From positions 1 to 35,859 of the IMG/VR virus record IMGVR_UViG_3300027265_000050: 35,859 nt of DNA, one strand, 5' to 3'. Every line of letters begins with the position of its first letter. The first letter of the stretch is position 1. A model generated the notes under the pieces. That model was not told the DNA's origin and made no database searches. It saw nothing but the letters and a program-made list of their open reading frames with translations. Shown here one piece after another: positions 12,407 through 27,005 of this stretch. A program made the translations under genes and the position numbers. The DNA comes from a virus. Its lineage: Duplodnaviria; Caudoviricetes.

Positions 12407-12903
12407 CGTTTAAGTATTGATTTAATGTAAGTATCCACCTCGCGAAAGTTAGCATCTACTACCCGTTTTACTGCAAGGTTAACCTGGCTGTGATGGCCAA
12501 TGAACCGGCGTTCCTGGATTATGATCCGGGAACCTACTTTCTTTAAGGCCATTGCTTTCCAGTACTGGGCCTCGGCGTTTGGCTTTTTGCTTTTACCACC
12601 CGACCTGTAAAACATAGCCCAGAAGTATTTTTGCATCTTCCTGGTAACTACAATCACACCTCCTTCGTTATGTATTCTGGCATAAGGCAGCGAGTTGGTA
12701 AACTGTATCATAAGGCCGTTAACAAGGGCACGGTTCCCGCGCCGTAACGCTCCAGATCGCATCAGGGTGCTTCCTCGCCGGTTTGCTCTGGTTGGGAGCC
12801 ACGGCTTATCGAAAAAAGCCTTCCGCTCAAAGTTTCGGTCGAACTCATCCATAAGTTCCACTTTGAGATCGGTAAGTACCTGATTGATAAAATTTAGTGC
12901 CAT
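12403..12903 (-). CDS. Phage virion morphogenesis / tail completion protein (Mu gpG-like)
   Basis: TLMRSGALRR...LPYARIHNEGG...RRFIG motifs. Confidence 0.85.
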   Translation of the reverse strand: MALNFINQVLTDLKVELMDEFDRNFERKAFFDKPWLPTRANRRGSTLMRSGALRRGNRALVNGLMIQFTNSLPYARIHNEGGVIVVTRKMQKYFWAMFYRSGGKSKKPNAEAQYWKAMALKKVGSRIIIQERRFIGHHSQVNLAVKRVVDANFREVDTYIKSILKR

Positions 12904-12928
12904 TTATTGAAAATGAGTAAAATGATTG

Positions 12929-13006
12929 TATCTTTGCTCCCGGTTGAGGGTATTGCAATATACCCCCGACCTCCCAAAAAAGGTATTCTTCGGAGTGCCT
13001 TTTTTG
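12929..13006 (+). ncRNA. Putative ~70-nt small RNA with its own promoter and terminator, convergent with the MuF gene
   Basis: TATCTTTG (12929-12936), hairpin GGTTGAGGGTAT-TGCAAT-ATACCCCCGACC, terminator AGGTATTC-TTCG-GAGTGCCT-TTTTT; the G-U pairs and cUUCGg loop form only on the + strand. Confidence 0.65.
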
Positions 13007-13009
13007 CTT

Positions 13010-14251
13010 TTATAGGGTGAAATCTTTATTCATTATTTCATCTCTCAGGTATGTTTTATCCTTTCCTTTGTGGATAACCGTGATGGATTTTATATTCTTC
13101 TCCTGGTTTACCCTTCCCCTAATCCCACGTTGCAGATCGTTATCGCTTATTCCCGATGTGATACGGATCACTACATGATCTGCTTGCCCGGCGGCATCAC
13201 GTATTTCGTTGTCAATTGCTCCTTTGGACGCTATAATGTTTGTTTTGTATTCCTGCTTTAAATTAAGCGTTTTGTTGAAGCTATCAGCGGTCTTTTTATT
13301 GCCTGAAACGGGTAAAAGATCAATATCATAACCATACGTATTAGCCAGGTACTTTGCCGTTATCAGGTTGCTTTCCCTCTCCCCGGCACCATGTAGAACA
13401 TTAACCCGGACACTGCCTTTATCGGTTTCAACCGTTTCCCATCCCCGTCCTTCGCCGCCTAATGATTCAACAATATTGCGGACTCCTTTCTGCACCTGCC
13501 TGTATGGATGATGAGGCGGAAATATCACTTTTTGCTTACCCGGATTGTAACGGAAAATAGCGGCTGAATTATTGCCGTTTTTGTCTATTTTGGTAGTGGC
13601 CTCTTCGCCTTTTGCGATAGCCTTTTTGGAATCGTCTTCCGGGTACTTCCCTTTGCGAACCTGCACTGCTGTGCACCGGCACCGCCAGGCTATCGGCGGA
13701 AGATAGCTATCCCAGAATGCATCCTCGGAGGGCAGTGTAATGTTGGCAAGTGCTGCATGATCATCGCGTACTTTGTTGTCACCGGCTGTCCGGTACTGGA
13801 GGTTATACCGGTCGCCGTCCTTTTCAAAGTCAACCCACTTGGCGGCCATTTGCGCTGAGCTGGTTGCGAAGATATATTCCGGCTCCAGGTACCTGACATT
13901 GTATTCCTGGTGAATGCTCAGCACATCGGCTTTAAACTGGTTGTAGGGCTTTATTTTCCCATCCGGAGTAATCAGGAGTTCTGAAGCTTCCTTCAGCTGG
14001 GCATGAGTTTTTAAACCAGAGAAAACAAAAACGTCATTCCGGAGAGCTCGAAGCATTTCTTCAGGAGGCATATTATCCAGTATGCCTTCATCCAGTGCGT
14101 TACTCAGTATGCGGTTTGTTTCGTTCACCAATCCGAGGAAAGGCTCATCGCTGAGCATTTCAGGTTCATACCCACCAGATTTATGCAGGTGTTTTATTGC
14201 TCTGGAGAAAATGTTTGCACGAAATGCGTTTTTCTTTGCATCAAACGCCAA
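13010..14251 (-). CDS. MuF (phage minor head protein) with C-terminal PD-(D/E)xK nuclease toxin domain, CdiA-tRNase-like
   Basis: MuF motifs YRTAGDNKVRDDH and PPIAWRCRC; C-terminal extension with KTADSF...KQEYK...IRDAAGQADHVVI. Only a weak TTG start; the frame is open upstream into the end of the portal gene. Confidence 0.85.
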   Translation of the reverse strand: MAFDAKKNAFRANIFSRAIKHLHKSGGYEPEMLSDEPFLGLVNETNRILSNALDEGILDNMPPEEMLRALRNDVFVFSGLKTHAQLKEASELLITPDGKIKPYNQFKADVLSIHQEYNVRYLEPEYIFATSSAQMAAKWVDFEKDGDRYNLQYRTAGDNKVRDDHAALANITLPSEDAFWDSYLPPIAWRCRCTAVQVRKGKYPEDDSKKAIAKGEEATTKIDKNGNNSAAIFRYNPGKQKVIFPPHHPYRQVQKGVRNIVESLGGEGRGWETVETDKGSVRVNVLHGAGERESNLITAKYLANTYGYDIDLLPVSGNKKTADSFNKTLNLKQEYKTNIIASKGAIDNEIRDAAGQADHVVIRITSGISDNDLQRGIRGRVNQEKNIKSITVIHKGKDKTYLRDEIMNKDFTL

Positions 14252-14304
14252 TAAAGTTGCACCGGGTGCAAGGTGGCTGAGCGTAGCCGAAGCCCCGCAG
14301 CAAT

Positions 14305-14371
14305 CGCACGTTTGATTATACAGACCCGAAAGCTGTGCGCTTATTTTTTCTTCGGGTCTGACTGAAAATTT
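14305..14371 (-). promoter_or_regulatory. Predicted programmed -1 ribosomal frameshift signal, portal into MuF
   Basis: Heptamer A_AAT_TTT in the portal frame (14371-14365), 10-bp stem CAGACCCGAA/TTCGGGTCTG, loop CGCAC pairing with downstream GTGCG; the -1 frame is the MuF frame with no stop. Confidence 0.75.
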
Positions 14372-15600
14372 GCGCCGGTTCCTCCAGCTGGTGTTTGCTT
14401 TATGCCGGTTACTTCAATACCGAACTTTTGCTTCACCCACTCCGGATCAACATCCATATATTGCATAAACCCGATTGTGCGCGTATAGAGTTCTCTGGTG
14501 TCCTCCTGTGGGTCGAAAGCGAATATAAGGCCGTCAGGCAGTAGCCCGATTTTAAACAGGCCCGGAAGTACAACGGTGTTCATATAACCTTCCACGAGGC
14601 GTTTGTCGCTCTCAGCGAGGCGCATTAATTGCTCAACACTAACCTTCTCTTTGCTTTCGTTGCCGTTTTTGGTATCCTGCCCAATAACTGCACCAACAAT
14701 CAACAGTGAGTTTTCATTGTTGCAAAGCCTTATCAGGTTGTTATACACATCGCCTGTTGTAACCGCTCCGGTTGCAAATTCGAACTCTTCGGAGTCGTCG
14801 ATTATGAACCAGGCTGCCGCGCCCATATCGCGCATCATCATCTCGGCACGGTCGAGCATGGCCGGGTTTTGGGTATTTGTTTTCATCACCCTGGGAGGGA
14901 TGCCGTATATTTCGCAAAGCTCGCTCCAGCAGCTCTGGGCAAATCTTTTAATTAGAACGTGCGGAACGGCCTTGTTTAAAATGCCAAATTCATCCGGTTT
15001 GCCAAATTCAAGCAGCCATGAGCCGTACTCCTTCACGTTGCGGAAGTCGATACCGGTGGTTGCCGTTTCATCCAGTAGCAGGATTCCTTTTTCCGGGATA
15101 ACATTTTGCTTTGGAATTAACACCGGCTTAAGTACGCCGTTTTTGTCGGTCACCATTTCAACCAACGCGGTACCGCTGAGCTGTGTATCGAATATATGCC
15201 CGATCAGTTCGCCGAACCAGGGCAATGATTTTAACAGGGCGGTTGAAACATCATCAGCCGTATCTCCTTTTTTCAGCGTGAATGGGGCGGATGTGCTGAT
15301 CATGCGCCGGTTGGTAATCTGCGAGCTGAGTAATGCATCAAGCATAATATCTTTGTATAGCTTATGCAACAATACCCTTTTTGGCATATCAACATTATCG
15401 GCCTGGCGGAGAGCCGATTTCCACGATGCAATGTCCTGCCGGGTGCGGCTTATGGTCTTAGGCGCAATTTGTGCGGCATACCCGTCGGTACGCTTTGCAA
15501 CGGTAGGCTGAGTCGGGGCTGGAGCTTTGAGGTTCAATCTCCCTGGACTAATATAATCGGTTTTATTAGTCCGTGTGCTTCTTCGGTTCTTTTTCATCAC
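14341..15600 (-). CDS. Portal protein (Mu gp29 / DUF935-like)
   Basis: 419 aa; WSELCEIYGIPPRVMKT and GAAAW motifs; located between the adaptor and MuF. Confidence 0.88.
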   Translation of the reverse strand: MMKKNRRSTRTNKTDYISPGRLNLKAPAPTQPTVAKRTDGYAAQIAPKTISRTRQDIASWKSALRQADNVDMPKRVLLHKLYKDIMLDALLSSQITNRRMISTSAPFTLKKGDTADDVSTALLKSLPWFGELIGHIFDTQLSGTALVEMVTDKNGVLKPVLIPKQNVIPEKGILLLDETATTGIDFRNVKEYGSWLLEFGKPDEFGILNKAVPHVLIKRFAQSCWSELCEIYGIPPRVMKTNTQNPAMLDRAEMMMRDMGAAAWFIIDDSEEFEFATGAVTTGDVYNNLIRLCNNENSLLIVGAVIGQDTKNGNESKEKVSVEQLMRLAESDKRLVEGYMNTVVLPGLFKIGLLPDGLIFAFDPQEDTRELYTRTIGFMQYMDVDPEWVKQKFGIEVTGIKQTPAGGTGANFQSDPKKK

Positions 15601-24273: not shown

Positions 24274-24588
24274 ATGAGTAAAGTTGAAGTATTGATCGGA
24301 CAGGCCACTCCGGAACAAATTGAAGAGTGGAAAAAGAAATACGGCAAAATGTGGGCGATTATAGTCGGCGGCCATATTTGCTATTTGAAAAAGCCAGATC
24401 GTAAAATACTGGGATATGCCTCAGTATCCGGTAAAGATAACCCGCTTAAGTTTAACGAGGTGATGCTTACCAACTGCTTTGTTGGCGGCAGTGAAGCCAT
24501 AAAAACAGACGATGAACTATTCCTGGGCGCAAGTTCAAAACTTGTTGATATTATCCAGGTGAAGGAAGCCGAACTGGTAAACTTATAG
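24274..24588 (+). CDS. Tail assembly chaperone (short form)
   Basis: QIEEWKKKYG...CYLKKPDR; between tube and tape measure genes. Confidence 0.85.
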   Translation: MSKVEVLIGQATPEQIEEWKKKYGKMWAIIVGGHICYLKKPDRKILGYASVSGKDNPLKFNEVMLTNCFVGGSEAIKTDDELFLGASSKLVDIIQVKEAELVNL

Positions 24589-24752
24589 AGGGTGCCGGAG
24601 TAACAGACGGTATGCTGGTGCGGATAGCAAATGCCCAACTTAGCTATTTCATGCACATACCCGATCCGGACAGCCTCGACGACGAAACATGGGCAATGCG
24701 ATTAACCGAACTCGCTTATATAAGGAAAAAAGAAGCTGAAGCAAACAAATAG
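24576..24752 (+). CDS. -1 frameshift extension of the tail assembly chaperone
   Basis: Slippery G_GTA_AAC just before the stop; the -1 frame reads ...YFMHIPDPDSLDDETWAMRLTELAYIRKKEAEANK* and ends 3 nt before the tape measure ATG. Confidence 0.8.
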   Translation, partial: GKLIEGAGVTDGMLVRIANAQLSYFMHIPDPDSLDDETWAMRLTELAYIRKKEAEANK

Positions 24753-24755
24753 AAA

Positions 24756-27005
24756 ATGTCAGACGTACTATCATACACACTTTCATTACAAGATCAGATC
24801 AGCGCTAAACTGCAGAAGATTGGTGTTAGCTCTGACCATGCTCTTGATATTTTTTCGAAGCTTCAGAAACAAAGCCTATCGATGGGCAAGATCATGGGCG
24901 AAACCGGGAGGAGTGTTGGAAGCCTTCAGATGAAGCTCGACCTGTTAAAACGTGAGCGCGACTGGATACCGGAGAAAAATTTAACCGATATCAAACGTTA
25001 TAATTCCGAAATCAACAAACTTGAAAAGCAAATAAACCACCTTCAGACAACGACCGGAAGTCGTATGTCGAAGGTGACAAACGCTTTATCCGCTATTCCC
25101 GGAGCTGAGCTTTTAACCAATCCAATTGTACAGGCTGGTGCCGCTCTGTTCGGTGCCGGTAAGATGGCATTCAGCTTTGATGAGGGCATGGCAAAGATTA
25201 ATACCACCGCTCAAATGTCGCAGCCTCAGCTTGCGGCTTTCAAAAAAGAATTGATTGCAATTGGAGTCGACGCAAAGGCTAACCTTTCCACAGTTCCTGA
25301 AGCATATGAAAAGATTCTCAGCCAGACAAATGACGTTGCGCTTTCAACCGATATACTGAAACAATCATTGAAAGGCGCGAAAGCGGGCTTCACTGATCAA
25401 TCTATTGTAGCGGAAGCGCTGGCACAAACACTCTCCCTGGTAGGCAAAGAAAATACAAATGCGCAGGAAGTTATTGATACACTTTTTGCCGCTAAGCGAG
25501 TAGGAGCTGGTGAGTTTCGTGACTTCGCCCAGTATGTTCCCGGACTGATTGCTTCAGGTCAGGCATTAGGAATGGGCTTTAAACAAACTGCCGGTTTATT
25601 TGCATTTATGACTGGTAAAGGTCAGAGCGCTGAGCGATCGGCTATGCTTATGACAAACGCCTTCACCGCTCTTGGAAAGTCTGAAATTACTGGAGGCATG
25701 GAGAAAGCCGGTATAAAGGTTTTCAATACCGATGGCTCCATGAAGCAAATGGATCAGATATTCAGCCAGGTTCAAAAAAAGATGGAAGCTTTCGGGAAGG
25801 ACGATAAAGCAAAATCCAATTTCCTGGAGAAAATAGGTTTAAGAGATGCCCAGGCGAAACAGGCATTTATGGTAATGGCCAGCGATAGTAAAAAGCTGTC
25901 CGAAACTTTGACCGATGTGGCAAATTCGCAGGGCGAGGCAGATGCTGCTTTTGCTAATTCTATGAATAACATGCAGAAGATTGCCGGGCTTTGGTCGCAG
26001 ATACAAATGATTGCGTTAACGCTTGGAGGCGCTTTATCAACAGTTCTTTCCCCAGCACTTGACGTATTAACTGGAGTATTTTCAGGCTTGAACTCAACAA
26101 TAGAGTATATGACGCATAGATTTCAGAGGCTGTGGGAGCTTTTAAACGATGGCGATCAAACAGCAATTGTATTAACTTCATTAGTTGCAGGGCTAGCCGG
26201 TGTCATGGCAATTCAGGCATTCTGGGCAGGAGCGGTTGCCGTTAAAACTGCACTATGGACAAGTGCCCAATGGCTACTGAATGCTGCTGTAAGCGCAAAC
26301 CCCATTGGCGTTATTATTTTTGGAATAATTGCATTATTTGCCGCCATTGGCTGGATTATTCATAAAACTGATGGCTGGGGCAAGCAATGGGATTCCGTTG
26401 TAAGTTTTATGAAGTATAGTTTTATGGCTTTTGTTGAGGGTATCAAGTTATACTGGAATACCTGGATAGAAGGGTTTATGATCGGACTCGACATCATCAG
26501 GCTAGGGTGGTATAAGTTTAAAGAGGCTATCGGACTTGGTGACTCAGCTGAAAATCAATCAGCAATTGCAAAGATTAACGCTGACGTTGAGGCCAGGCAG
26601 AAAGCGATAACTGACGGTGCAAAGAAGGTAGACGAATATGCCGCAAAAGCTAATAGCGCACTAAAATGGGAGTTATCGTGGAACAACACCAAAAAGTTCA
26701 GCGATGTAACCAGCAGCATCAAGGATAAGATTGGGCTTCCGGGATCAACCGGAATAGCACCGGTAACTCTGCCAGGCTCGCAGGGAACTACTCAGGGCGA
26801 TGGGGAACCGGACGGAACCGGTTCAAAGGTAACCGATGCTATCAGCTCCGGTGGAACCCGCAACAGCTCCGTGCAGATCACCTTTAAAAATATGATTGAA
26901 ACATTTGTTTCGAACGGTGATACGAAAACAACTGAACGTGAATTGGAAGAAGTGGTAATCAGCGTCATGTCCAGAGTTCTTGGTATGGCCCAAAGTACAG
27001 CATAA
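24756..27005 (+). CDS. Tail tape measure protein
   Basis: 749 aa, helical and Ala/Gly-rich; FDEGMAKINT and ANPIGVII motifs. Confidence 0.92.
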   Translation: MSDVLSYTLSLQDQISAKLQKIGVSSDHALDIFSKLQKQSLSMGKIMGETGRSVGSLQMKLDLLKRERDWIPEKNLTDIKRYNSEINKLEKQINHLQTTTGSRMSKVTNALSAIPGAELLTNPIVQAGAALFGAGKMAFSFDEGMAKINTTAQMSQPQLAAFKKELIAIGVDAKANLSTVPEAYEKILSQTNDVALSTDILKQSLKGAKAGFTDQSIVAEALAQTLSLVGKENTNAQEVIDTLFAAKRVGAGEFRDFAQYVPGLIASGQALGMGFKQTAGLFAFMTGKGQSAERSAMLMTNAFTALGKSEITGGMEKAGIKVFNTDGSMKQMDQIFSQVQKKMEAFGKDDKAKSNFLEKIGLRDAQAKQAFMVMASDSKKLSETLTDVANSQGEADAAFANSMNNMQKIAGLWSQIQMIALTLGGALSTVLSPALDVLTGVFSGLNSTIEYMTHRFQRLWELLNDGDQTAIVLTSLVAGLAGVMAIQAFWAGAVAVKTALWTSAQWLLNAAVSANPIGVIIFGIIALFAAIGWIIHKTDGWGKQWDSVVSFMKYSFMAFVEGIKLYWNTWIEGFMIGLDIIRLGWYKFKEAIGLGDSAENQSAIAKINADVEARQKAITDGAKKVDEYAAKANSALKWELSWNNTKKFSDVTSSIKDKIGLPGSTGIAPVTLPGSQGTTQGDGEPDGTGSKVTDAISSGGTRNSSVQITFKNMIETFVSNGDTKTTERELEEVVISVMSRVLGMAQSTA

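Follow-up and report, generated by a model that had tools for sequence, protein, structure and literature searches.

A predicted programmed −1 frameshift at the portal–MuF junction of Mu-like phages of Bacteroidota

INTRODUCTION

Frameshifting in phages has been nearly equated with the tail assembly chaperones, and portals are treated as homo-oligomers. Here we describe a cassette at the end of the portal gene of a complete 35,859-base provirus record (IMG/VR record IMGVR_UViG_3300027265_000050; this whole stretch of DNA is called the window below) that we predict to act as a programmed −1 ribosomal frameshift site, extending some portal chains into the adjacent MuF protein. Among described systems (papers are cited by PubMed Central identifier, in each case for the portion of the text that was examined), the G/GT genes of phage lambda have a similar arrangement: a slippery heptamer near the end of a gene, a downstream open reading frame (ORF) in the −1 frame and two products with a common N-terminus (PMC5009743; PMC10885494). 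In lambda-type G/GT the ratio of the products is set, and the direction of the shift varies between phages (−1, −2 or +1; PMC10885494; PMC5009743). The site described here differs in that it lies in the portal gene, in the head module, rather than in a chaperone gene just before the tape measure; its predicted products are virion proteins, it has a conserved 3′ hairpin, and its polarity is reversed in a sister group. This reversal matches dnaX tau/gamma: there, a long ORF also gives a short product by way of a −1 shift accompanied by a 3′ stem-loop, and reversed forms of the arrangement are known (PMC5009743). The dnaX site, however, is A_AAA_AAG and works at about 50% (PMC5009743), whereas the site here is U-rich and belongs to a phage structural gene. 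In T7 gene 10 and in Listeria phage PSA some copies of a structural subunit are extended at the C-terminus by frameshifting (PMC5009743), as is predicted here.

MuF polymorphic toxins are encoded directly after the portal and have a variable C-terminal effector, as in the window (PMC5576092; Bxa/Apk2, PMC11699363). Both of these papers treat MuF toxins as separately initiated, and the word 'frameshift' does not occur in either main text. Of the MuF-toxin layout of Jamet et al. (2017), the window has the portal adjacency and the variable toxin domain but not the downstream immunity ORF. SPP1 gp7 binds the portal at 1–2 copies per capsid (PMC5576092). In-frame portal–MuF(–PBECR) fusion genes (PMC5512222; PMC7302621) show that such a fusion is natural and have been described as single proteins; by comparison, 34/39 of the Bacteroidota examples collected here hide a strict slippery site and a hairpin at the domain junction.

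No report of a portal–MuF frameshift, or of a frameshift at a portal gene, was found in the open-access literature (subscription papers lie mostly outside this coverage), and no paper in the open-access text treats frameshifting and DUF935, the family of the portal studied here, jointly. The word 'portal' is absent from the examined part of the main texts of PMC5009743, of the GeneTack survey (PMC3711429) and of the PRFect paper (PMC10885494). Frameshifting is mentioned solely for tail chaperones in the examined text of the Hardycor1 (PMC7911831) and Microbacterium (PMC7302621) papers, and solely for spanins in that of a P. gingivalis phage paper (PMC10367356). Judged by its sequence, the site is very probably a variant of a familiar kind of recoding, in a gene not so far described as recoded; a switch of polarity and a few +1/−2 loci are added to this.

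RESULTS

Sequences compared

The window encodes a Mu-type transposase, terminase, gp36 adaptor, portal, MuF, neck protein and tape measure. The relatives of its portal fall in Bacteroidota, and the window is a Mu-like phage of this phylum. Hankyphage p00 and Peternella_1 are distant relatives, with a portal identity of 27%.

Loci from related phages are numbered with the prefix L. A first sample of 177 sequences, including the window, gave 166 callable junctions and 106 non-redundant loci at 90% portal identity; its statistics use the 103 loci with at least 40% portal identity to the window. The full sample comprised 442 sequences, of which 427 were callable (11 end before MuF and 4 have partial portals), and reduced to 189 non-redundant portal loci. 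We call loci with MuF in the −1 frame type A, in-frame portal–MuF fusions type B, and loci with a start-less MuF in the +1 frame type C. The phase was re-read by inspection at L103, where there is a run of N, and at L167 and L289, where there are downstream breaks, as were the slippery sites of L143, L257, L305, L447, L462, L464 and L508.

The portal end of the window

The elements at the end of the portal gene are as follows.

14341–15600, − strand: portal gene of Mu gp29/DUF935 type, 419 aa (Pfam Portal_Mu, E 1.2e-63; phrog_113)
14365–14371, − strand: slippery heptamer A_AAT_TTT (Asn-Phe), in the phase of the portal
14359–14364, − strand: 6-nt spacer up to the conserved stem core
14321–14360, − strand: hairpin with a 10-bp stem (14360–14351 with 14330–14321) and the portal stop (14343–14341) in its loop
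14305–14339, − strand: candidate second helix, CGCAC (14339–14335) with GTGCG (14309–14305)
13010–14365, − strand: −1 frame from the slippery site, 451 codons, with a Cys-rich linker, MuF and a C-terminal domain
13667–13894, − strand: MuF domain core (Phage_Mu_F / SPP1 gp7-like; PF04233, E 2e-10, above cut-off; TIGR01641, E 2.4e-9, just under cut-off)

The portal start candidates are GTG 15600 and ATG 15597. Upstream, the −1 frame is closed by a TGA at 14416, 15 codons from the heptamer, and it is then open from 14413 to 13010, giving a predicted shifted product of 412+451 = 863 aa. A first-pass annotation of this DNA had described the heptamer and its phase, the stem, the stop codon in the loop, the CGCAC/GTGCG complementarity and the upstream closure of the −1 frame, and had predicted a fusion of ~860 aa. 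Each of these elements was found on the − strand where it had been placed, and the computed product agrees with the predicted size.

The window stem begins 4 nt 3′ of the heptamer, and the hairpin folds at −22.1 kcal/mol (z −2.0; 9/200 shuffles were equally good). Some strict heptamer occurs within the last 12 codons of 4/40 window ORFs. Because z is only −2.0 and 4/40 ORFs end with a strict heptamer, the window alone is modest evidence for a frameshift, and suggestive only. Just after the hairpin (14320–14290, −1 frame) lies a Cys-rich linker (CDCC-like) that is conserved in both type A and type B products; its sequence makes a metal site between portal and MuF possible.

Conservation of the site and of the downstream frame

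The phase of MuF relative to the portal was far from random, with MuF in the −1 frame (type A) in 168 of the 189 non-redundant loci, in frame in 14 and in the +1 frame in 7. In the first sample 101/103 loci were scored as −1 automatically, and L103 and L167 also proved to be −1 at the junction on inspection. A strict heptamer was present at the site in 100/103 loci of the first sample, and a strict U-type heptamer in 161/168 type A loci (T_TTT_TTC in 118, A_AAT_TTT in 28 and T_TTT_TTT in 15). When the last 12 codons were compared, 99/103 portal ends had a U-type heptamer, against 14/862 control ORF ends from the same loci; therefore, the window site is more than a chance occurrence. The first-pass expectation that related portal 3′ ends would share the phase and a slippery heptamer is borne out by these counts, and that of stem covariation by compensatory stem pairs (below).

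The wobble base before the P-site codon was T in 74/74 Phe-Phe sites, across 11 codons, and A in 26/26 Asn-Phe sites, across 8 codons; the corresponding backgrounds were 309/1384 for T before internal Phe codons and 522/2118 for A before internal Asn codons. That the wobble base tracks the P-site codon fits tandem tRNA re-pairing, and is a pattern that selection on the protein cannot give. Nucleotide-level selection on the site was seen in both types, at these wobble bases in type A and in type B at the first Phe codon, which is TTT in 34/34. The −1 frame was open from the site to MuF in 164/168 type A loci. At the level of sequence, all the parts of a canonical −1 cassette are therefore present: a phased heptamer, nucleotide selection, a 3′ structure and an open, conserved −1 frame.

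An assembly error as the source of the window junction was ruled out by its conservation in relatives. Separately, L119 (5140–5175; Flavobacterium covae chromosome) and L427 have one extra T and are read straight through as the predicted shift product; the extra base may be an assembly error or a natural mutant.

The downstream hairpin

A stimulatory 3′ RNA structure usually lies about 5–9 nt downstream of a −1 slippery site. In 82/103 loci the first helix of at least 5 bp started 4–6 nt after the site, and across the 103 loci the mean z of the helix was −2.1, compared with −0.6 to +0.3 for the flanking windows. In the family the stem begins 6 nt beyond the heptamer, with GCC at bases 7–9 in 108/161 loci, and exactly one sense codon separates the heptamer from the portal stop in 116/161, the stop then occupying spacer bases 4–6. 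In the window the second spacer codon is TCA, a sense codon, and the portal stop is shifted into the loop. The earlier concern that the 4-nt spacer of the window is slightly short largely dissolves, because the core of the family stem sits 6 nt after the heptamer and the window stem consists of this core plus two extra pairs.

Because the structure used for stem and pseudoknot covariation was drawn from the window's own sequence, the controls lean in its favour; with that structure, the 19 window-like sequences had changes on both sides in 4/6 pairs of the stem core, and the second helix was paired in 91.6% of cells with one compensatory change. The bases of the second helix also encode conserved residues in the −1 frame, and the helix is confined to the window's subclade. 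From these data an H-type pseudoknot at the window hairpin is possible. Rfam gave no match within window positions 12700–14600.

Reversed and +1 loci

A search for longer homologues of the portal found 68 portal–MuF(–PBECR2) fusion proteins, in keeping with the earlier statement that natural portal–MuF fusion genes exist; at the junction, 64/68 have FF or LF and then xxA(P). The DNA set for type B comprised 39 non-redundant in-frame fusions (4/80 new loci had no usable portal). In the same register as in type A, 34/39 have a strict T_TTT_TTY and the other 5 an imperfect site; the stem follows 6 nt later and the −1 frame closes after 17–43 codons in 39/39. The truncating layout of dnaX is therefore present, with a long frame 0, a site with a 3′ stem-loop and an early −1 stop. 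Because an early off-frame stop is expected by chance, the evidence for type B is the synonymous constraint and not the short off-frame. The Ala codon of the stem is GCC in 39/39 (background 0.32), a count favoured by the choice of the anchor by motif and hairpin energy, and the Gly codon is GGG in 35/36 (background 0.13). The pair formed by two variable positions is Watson–Crick in 37/39 (31 G-C, 5 A-T and 1 C-G), and some of the type B portals are only about 27% identical to the window portal. T_TTT_TTT accounted for 18/34 type B sites versus 15/133 type A Phe-Phe sites, in loci that are related.

In a MuF tree (FastTree, 160 rows) 13 type B and 2 type C loci formed one clade with a support of 0.976, but in the portal tree type B appeared in five places, and the portals of L282 (type B) and L163 (type A) are 72% identical. 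Because a single MuF clade is spread over five places of the portal tree, we infer one origin of type B on a MuF–PBECR module that would have recombined onto several portals. A type B MuF query gave 0 matches in a 401-genome sample of the phylum at E 1e-40, in a search with no positive control.

In the three type C loci (L375, L380 and L448) the portal end has CTT TTT TCG, a 6-bp stem lies 9 nt beyond the Phe codon, and MuF, which has no start of its own, is in the +1 frame, so that reaching it would take a shift of +1 or −2. Tentatively, these loci, which nest within the MuF lineage of type B, are assigned either a CUU_U-like +1 shift or a −2 shift. When the L380 portal was used as a scan query, two loci were returned, both type A in appearance. 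Of five further +1 loci, four have their own ATG gene and L349 probably does likewise.

Proposed mechanism and alternatives

We hold it to be highly likely, from the sequence comparisons above, that the portal-end cassette is a programmed −1 ribosomal frameshift, in which tandem slippage stimulated by the hairpin would give two products and a mixed portal ring. While the ribosome paused at the hairpin, tRNA-Asn and tRNA-Phe, placed on A_AAU_UUU, would both move back by one base and pair anew, and translation would continue through the linker, MuF and the nuclease. One mRNA would then yield the plain portal and a portal–MuF fusion of ~863 aa; the two would co-assemble, and only some subunits of the portal ring would carry MuF. 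The fusion would be the covalent counterpart of SPP1 gp7 bound to the portal at 1–2 copies, and the C-terminal effector would enter the cell with the DNA as cargo. In type B, the slip would end translation 17–43 codons on, giving a short portal from the fused gene. As type B keeps the cassette with reversed polarity, the conserved property would appear to be the two-product mixture and not which product is the default; the default product, short or fused, could evidently flip between lineages.

Several observations weigh against a frameshift. The loci are related by descent, and because of this shared ancestry the counts are not counts of independent events. Sites are imperfect in 4 type A loci and 5/39 type B loci, and in the three type C loci MuF is in the +1 frame, out of reach of a −1 slip. 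Some type A members, hankyphage p00 among them, have in addition an ATG close to the stop. Phages lotta, FPSV-S1 and Mushu and a Klebsiella Mu-like phage use a separate ATG MuF gene; since distant relatives do so, the fusion is not essential. Finally, in E. coli U_UUU_UUU is reported to shift much less readily than A_AAA_AAG (PMC5009743).

The same fusion would be obtained if RNA polymerase added a U on the T run and the transcript were translated normally. Most relatives have 6–7 T and the +1 T alleles encode the same product, both of which suit this explanation, as do the A runs of 9–10 without a clear hairpin in Peternella_1 and fF4; the three +1/−2 loci, too, would be easier to reach by a change in run length. 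However, A_AAT_TTT, with its 4–5 T, is all that the window and 27 further non-redundant loci have, and bacterial transcriptional slippage is described for runs of 9 (PMC5009743). Moreover, the base preceding the site changes along with the P-site codon, a match needed solely by tRNA re-pairing, and the hairpin lies 3′ of the run at the distance of a ribosome footprint, so that we regard transcriptional slippage as very unlikely. Another possibility, that the −1 shift occurs at the A run before the window stop (AAG AAA AAA TAA) and not at A_AAT_TTT, draws on A runs leading to the same frame in the window, L001 (A_AAA_AAG), L002, L003 and L095; we give it hardly any credence, as the run is missing in most close relatives (L005, L007–L013) and sits inside the hairpin rather than before it. 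MuF might also be separately initiated, at TTG 14251, at another codon or by re-initiation, with the overlap as ordinary packing and the hairpin tuning the coupling. A TTG is indeed present in the window, where no other common start precedes it in the MuF frame (the first in-frame ATG, 14158, is within the MuF region), some in-frame ATG, GTG or TTG is found in 112/168 loci, and distant relatives do have separate genes. But the TTG sits in an insertion peculiar to the window, and the codons preceding it are conserved in the −1 frame: the stretch from the stop to the TTG varies most at third positions of that frame (0.24/0.17/0.45), as coding sequence does. The start context of TTG 14251 gave no discrimination. 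Before the first MuF match, 130/168 type A loci have no ATG and 56/168 have no ATG, GTG or TTG; start positions are not conserved, each ATG position being common to at most 3 of 164 loci. Site and stem do not vary among hankyphage-like loci (79/80 loci read), whereas the ATG annotated as the MuF start gives way to GTG or is missing. Separate initiation would also leave unexplained the heptamer and its retention inside in-frame fusions. TTG 14251 is probably not a real start, and initiation there, which the first-pass annotation had raised as a way in which the frameshift could fail, is countered by its place in a window-specific insertion and by the lack of a conserved start in relatives; overall, we find separate initiation highly improbable.

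For type B alone, the cassette could be a relic or an RNA processing signal, all portal subunits being full-length fusions. Such fusion genes are present in Microbacterium clusters EA and EB (PMC7302621), portal–MuF–PBECR architectures are known (PMC5512222), 5/39 sites are imperfect, and chance alone would bring an off-frame stop within 43 codons. We nonetheless consider this unlikely, given that synonymous positions of the heptamer and stem are fixed or covary over 39 loci with portals down to ~27% identity. According to PMC5009743, shifts working at near 50%, like that of dnaX, can be turned into the zero frame, but there is no simple way to do this with a low-level structural-to-enzyme shift and still keep frameshifting. 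Type B appears to have made this very change, and for this reason implies a high efficiency, a retuning (T_TTT_TTT is commoner there) or a relic. With the programmed −1 frameshift as our reading of type A, we lean, on balance, towards a broader view in which one gene would give a heterogeneous portal ring and the cassette would be wired in three ways, extending the portal into MuF in type A, truncating the in-frame portal–MuF–PBECR fusion in type B, where one MuF lineage would have been joined to several portal lineages by recombination at the hairpin, and extending by a +1/−2 shift in type C; it would set the number of MuF–effector chains loaded covalently at the DNA exit, and the annotated protein ends would be wrong.

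If true, a portal recoding site would be a genetic answer to the low-copy targeting of MuF and its effectors to the portal vertex. The switch of polarity would be a natural experiment, as the ring must be tolerable with the fusion as either the shifted or the default product; it would follow that either the efficiency has been retuned or the ring tolerates a wide ratio. For annotation, the MuF starts of type A have likely been miscalled, and a short form is likely hidden in the 'portals' of type B. On the broader view, wrong ends would have been given to many proteins annotated as 'portal' or 'MuF toxin' in gut, oral and aquatic phages, hankyphage and the phages of P. gingivalis among them.

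The C-terminal domain and the gap behind it

Two further elements follow the MuF core.

13013–13465, − strand: C-terminal PD-(D/E)xK nuclease domain, CdiA-CT tRNase-related (profile match to 4g6v, E 6.8e-5)
12904–13009, no strand assigned: 106-nt gap next to the toxin stop, without an immunity ORF

A family profile of the C-terminal 151 residues matched the CdiA-CT tRNase structure 4g6v with the E-value listed, and a Pfam match to CdiA_C (E 9.5e-4) was below cut-off. An alignment-based model (pLDDT 93.6) had 4g6v as its best match (Foldseek E 5.7e-5) and superposed on it with Z 11.7 and rmsd 3.2 over 118 aligned residues; the next structure had Z 7.2. A single-sequence model (pLDDT 60.6) gave no Foldseek match and Z 5.7 to 4g6v, and the alignment-based model was used instead. 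From the likeness to 4g6v, in fold and acidic motif, the domain is predicted to be a tRNase, and the CdiA tRNase fold upholds the nuclease call of the first-pass annotation.

The extension is absent in 39/157 complete type A MuF products (≤330 aa), which have the same slippery signal. Among the 118 longer products, 76 were scanned and contained at least six different domain families (CdiA_C 15, LPD3 11, ART 6, PBECR2 4, Gln_amidase 2, GNAT 2, other weak matches 3 and none 33). C-terminal extensions of MuF are thus swapped freely among relatives, and the comparison identifies the effector as optional cargo. Of the first-pass proposal, the portal–MuF fusion by a programmed −1 frameshift stands as a prediction, on the phase (168/189) and the lack of a conserved MuF start; its suggested purpose, fixing the toxin dose per virion, is unsupported, because MuFs without an extension carry the same signal.

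No immunity ORF was found after the window toxin in a search for same-strand ATG ORFs, of which the 106-nt gap has none. A similar ORF-free, structured gap of ~100 nt also follows 10/13 CdiA-like and 5/6 LPD3 C-termini. On its + strand the window gap has a promoter-like TATCTTTG (12929–12936), a hairpin with TGCAAT in its loop and a terminator-like hairpin of 14 bp that ends in a T run, facing the toxin stop; the −7 promoter consensus of Bacteroidota is TAnnTTTG. This + strand element (12904–13009) is a candidate for a small RNA, an RNA antitoxin or a tRNA decoy.

Named phages and the window chaperone

In hankyphage p00 (L174:5280–5330; BK010646.1) T_TTT_TTC is followed after 6 nt by a GCCCC/GGGGC stem, and the portal stop comes 42 nt later; relatives do not share the MuF ATG that is annotated in this phage. 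Mass spectrometry of hankyphage capsids gave 3 peptides for MuF and 20 for the portal (PMC12135933, S6 Table), which is compatible with a low MuF copy number; like the 1–2 copies of portal-bound SPP1 gp7, these counts would fit, in type A, the minority of fused subunits supposed in the first-pass annotation. The occurrence of MuF in the 250–85 kDa gel slice was rejected as a sign of a fusion, because Gam and the adaptor, which are small proteins, are in the same slice (PMC12135933).

The annotated 853-aa 'portal protein' of P. gingivalis phage007a_Bg4 (L257:4188–4241; PP754929.1) is a portal–MuF fusion with a C-terminal extension; its junction has T_TTT_TTC and a hairpin, and the −1 frame stops after 21 codons. 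Peternella_1 (L175) and fF4 (L258) have A runs of 9–10 instead of the U-rich site, no clear hairpin, MuF in the −1 frame and GTG as the annotated MuF start; from their sequences, these two may use transcriptional slippage. In Elizabethkingia phage TCUEAP3 (L260) and Bacteroides phage BS-TP1 (L261; 112 kb) T_TTT_TTC or A_AAT_TTT lies near the portal end, and the open −1 frame begins well before the annotated MuF start.

On the + strand of the window, 24274–24750 holds a likely tail assembly chaperone (104 aa) and an open overlapping frame of ~55 codons that ends just before the tape measure gene (24756–27005). No strict heptamer was found in the last 12 codons of the chaperone, and the arrangement suggests a possible non-canonical shift of the G/GT type or a TTG/ATG start.

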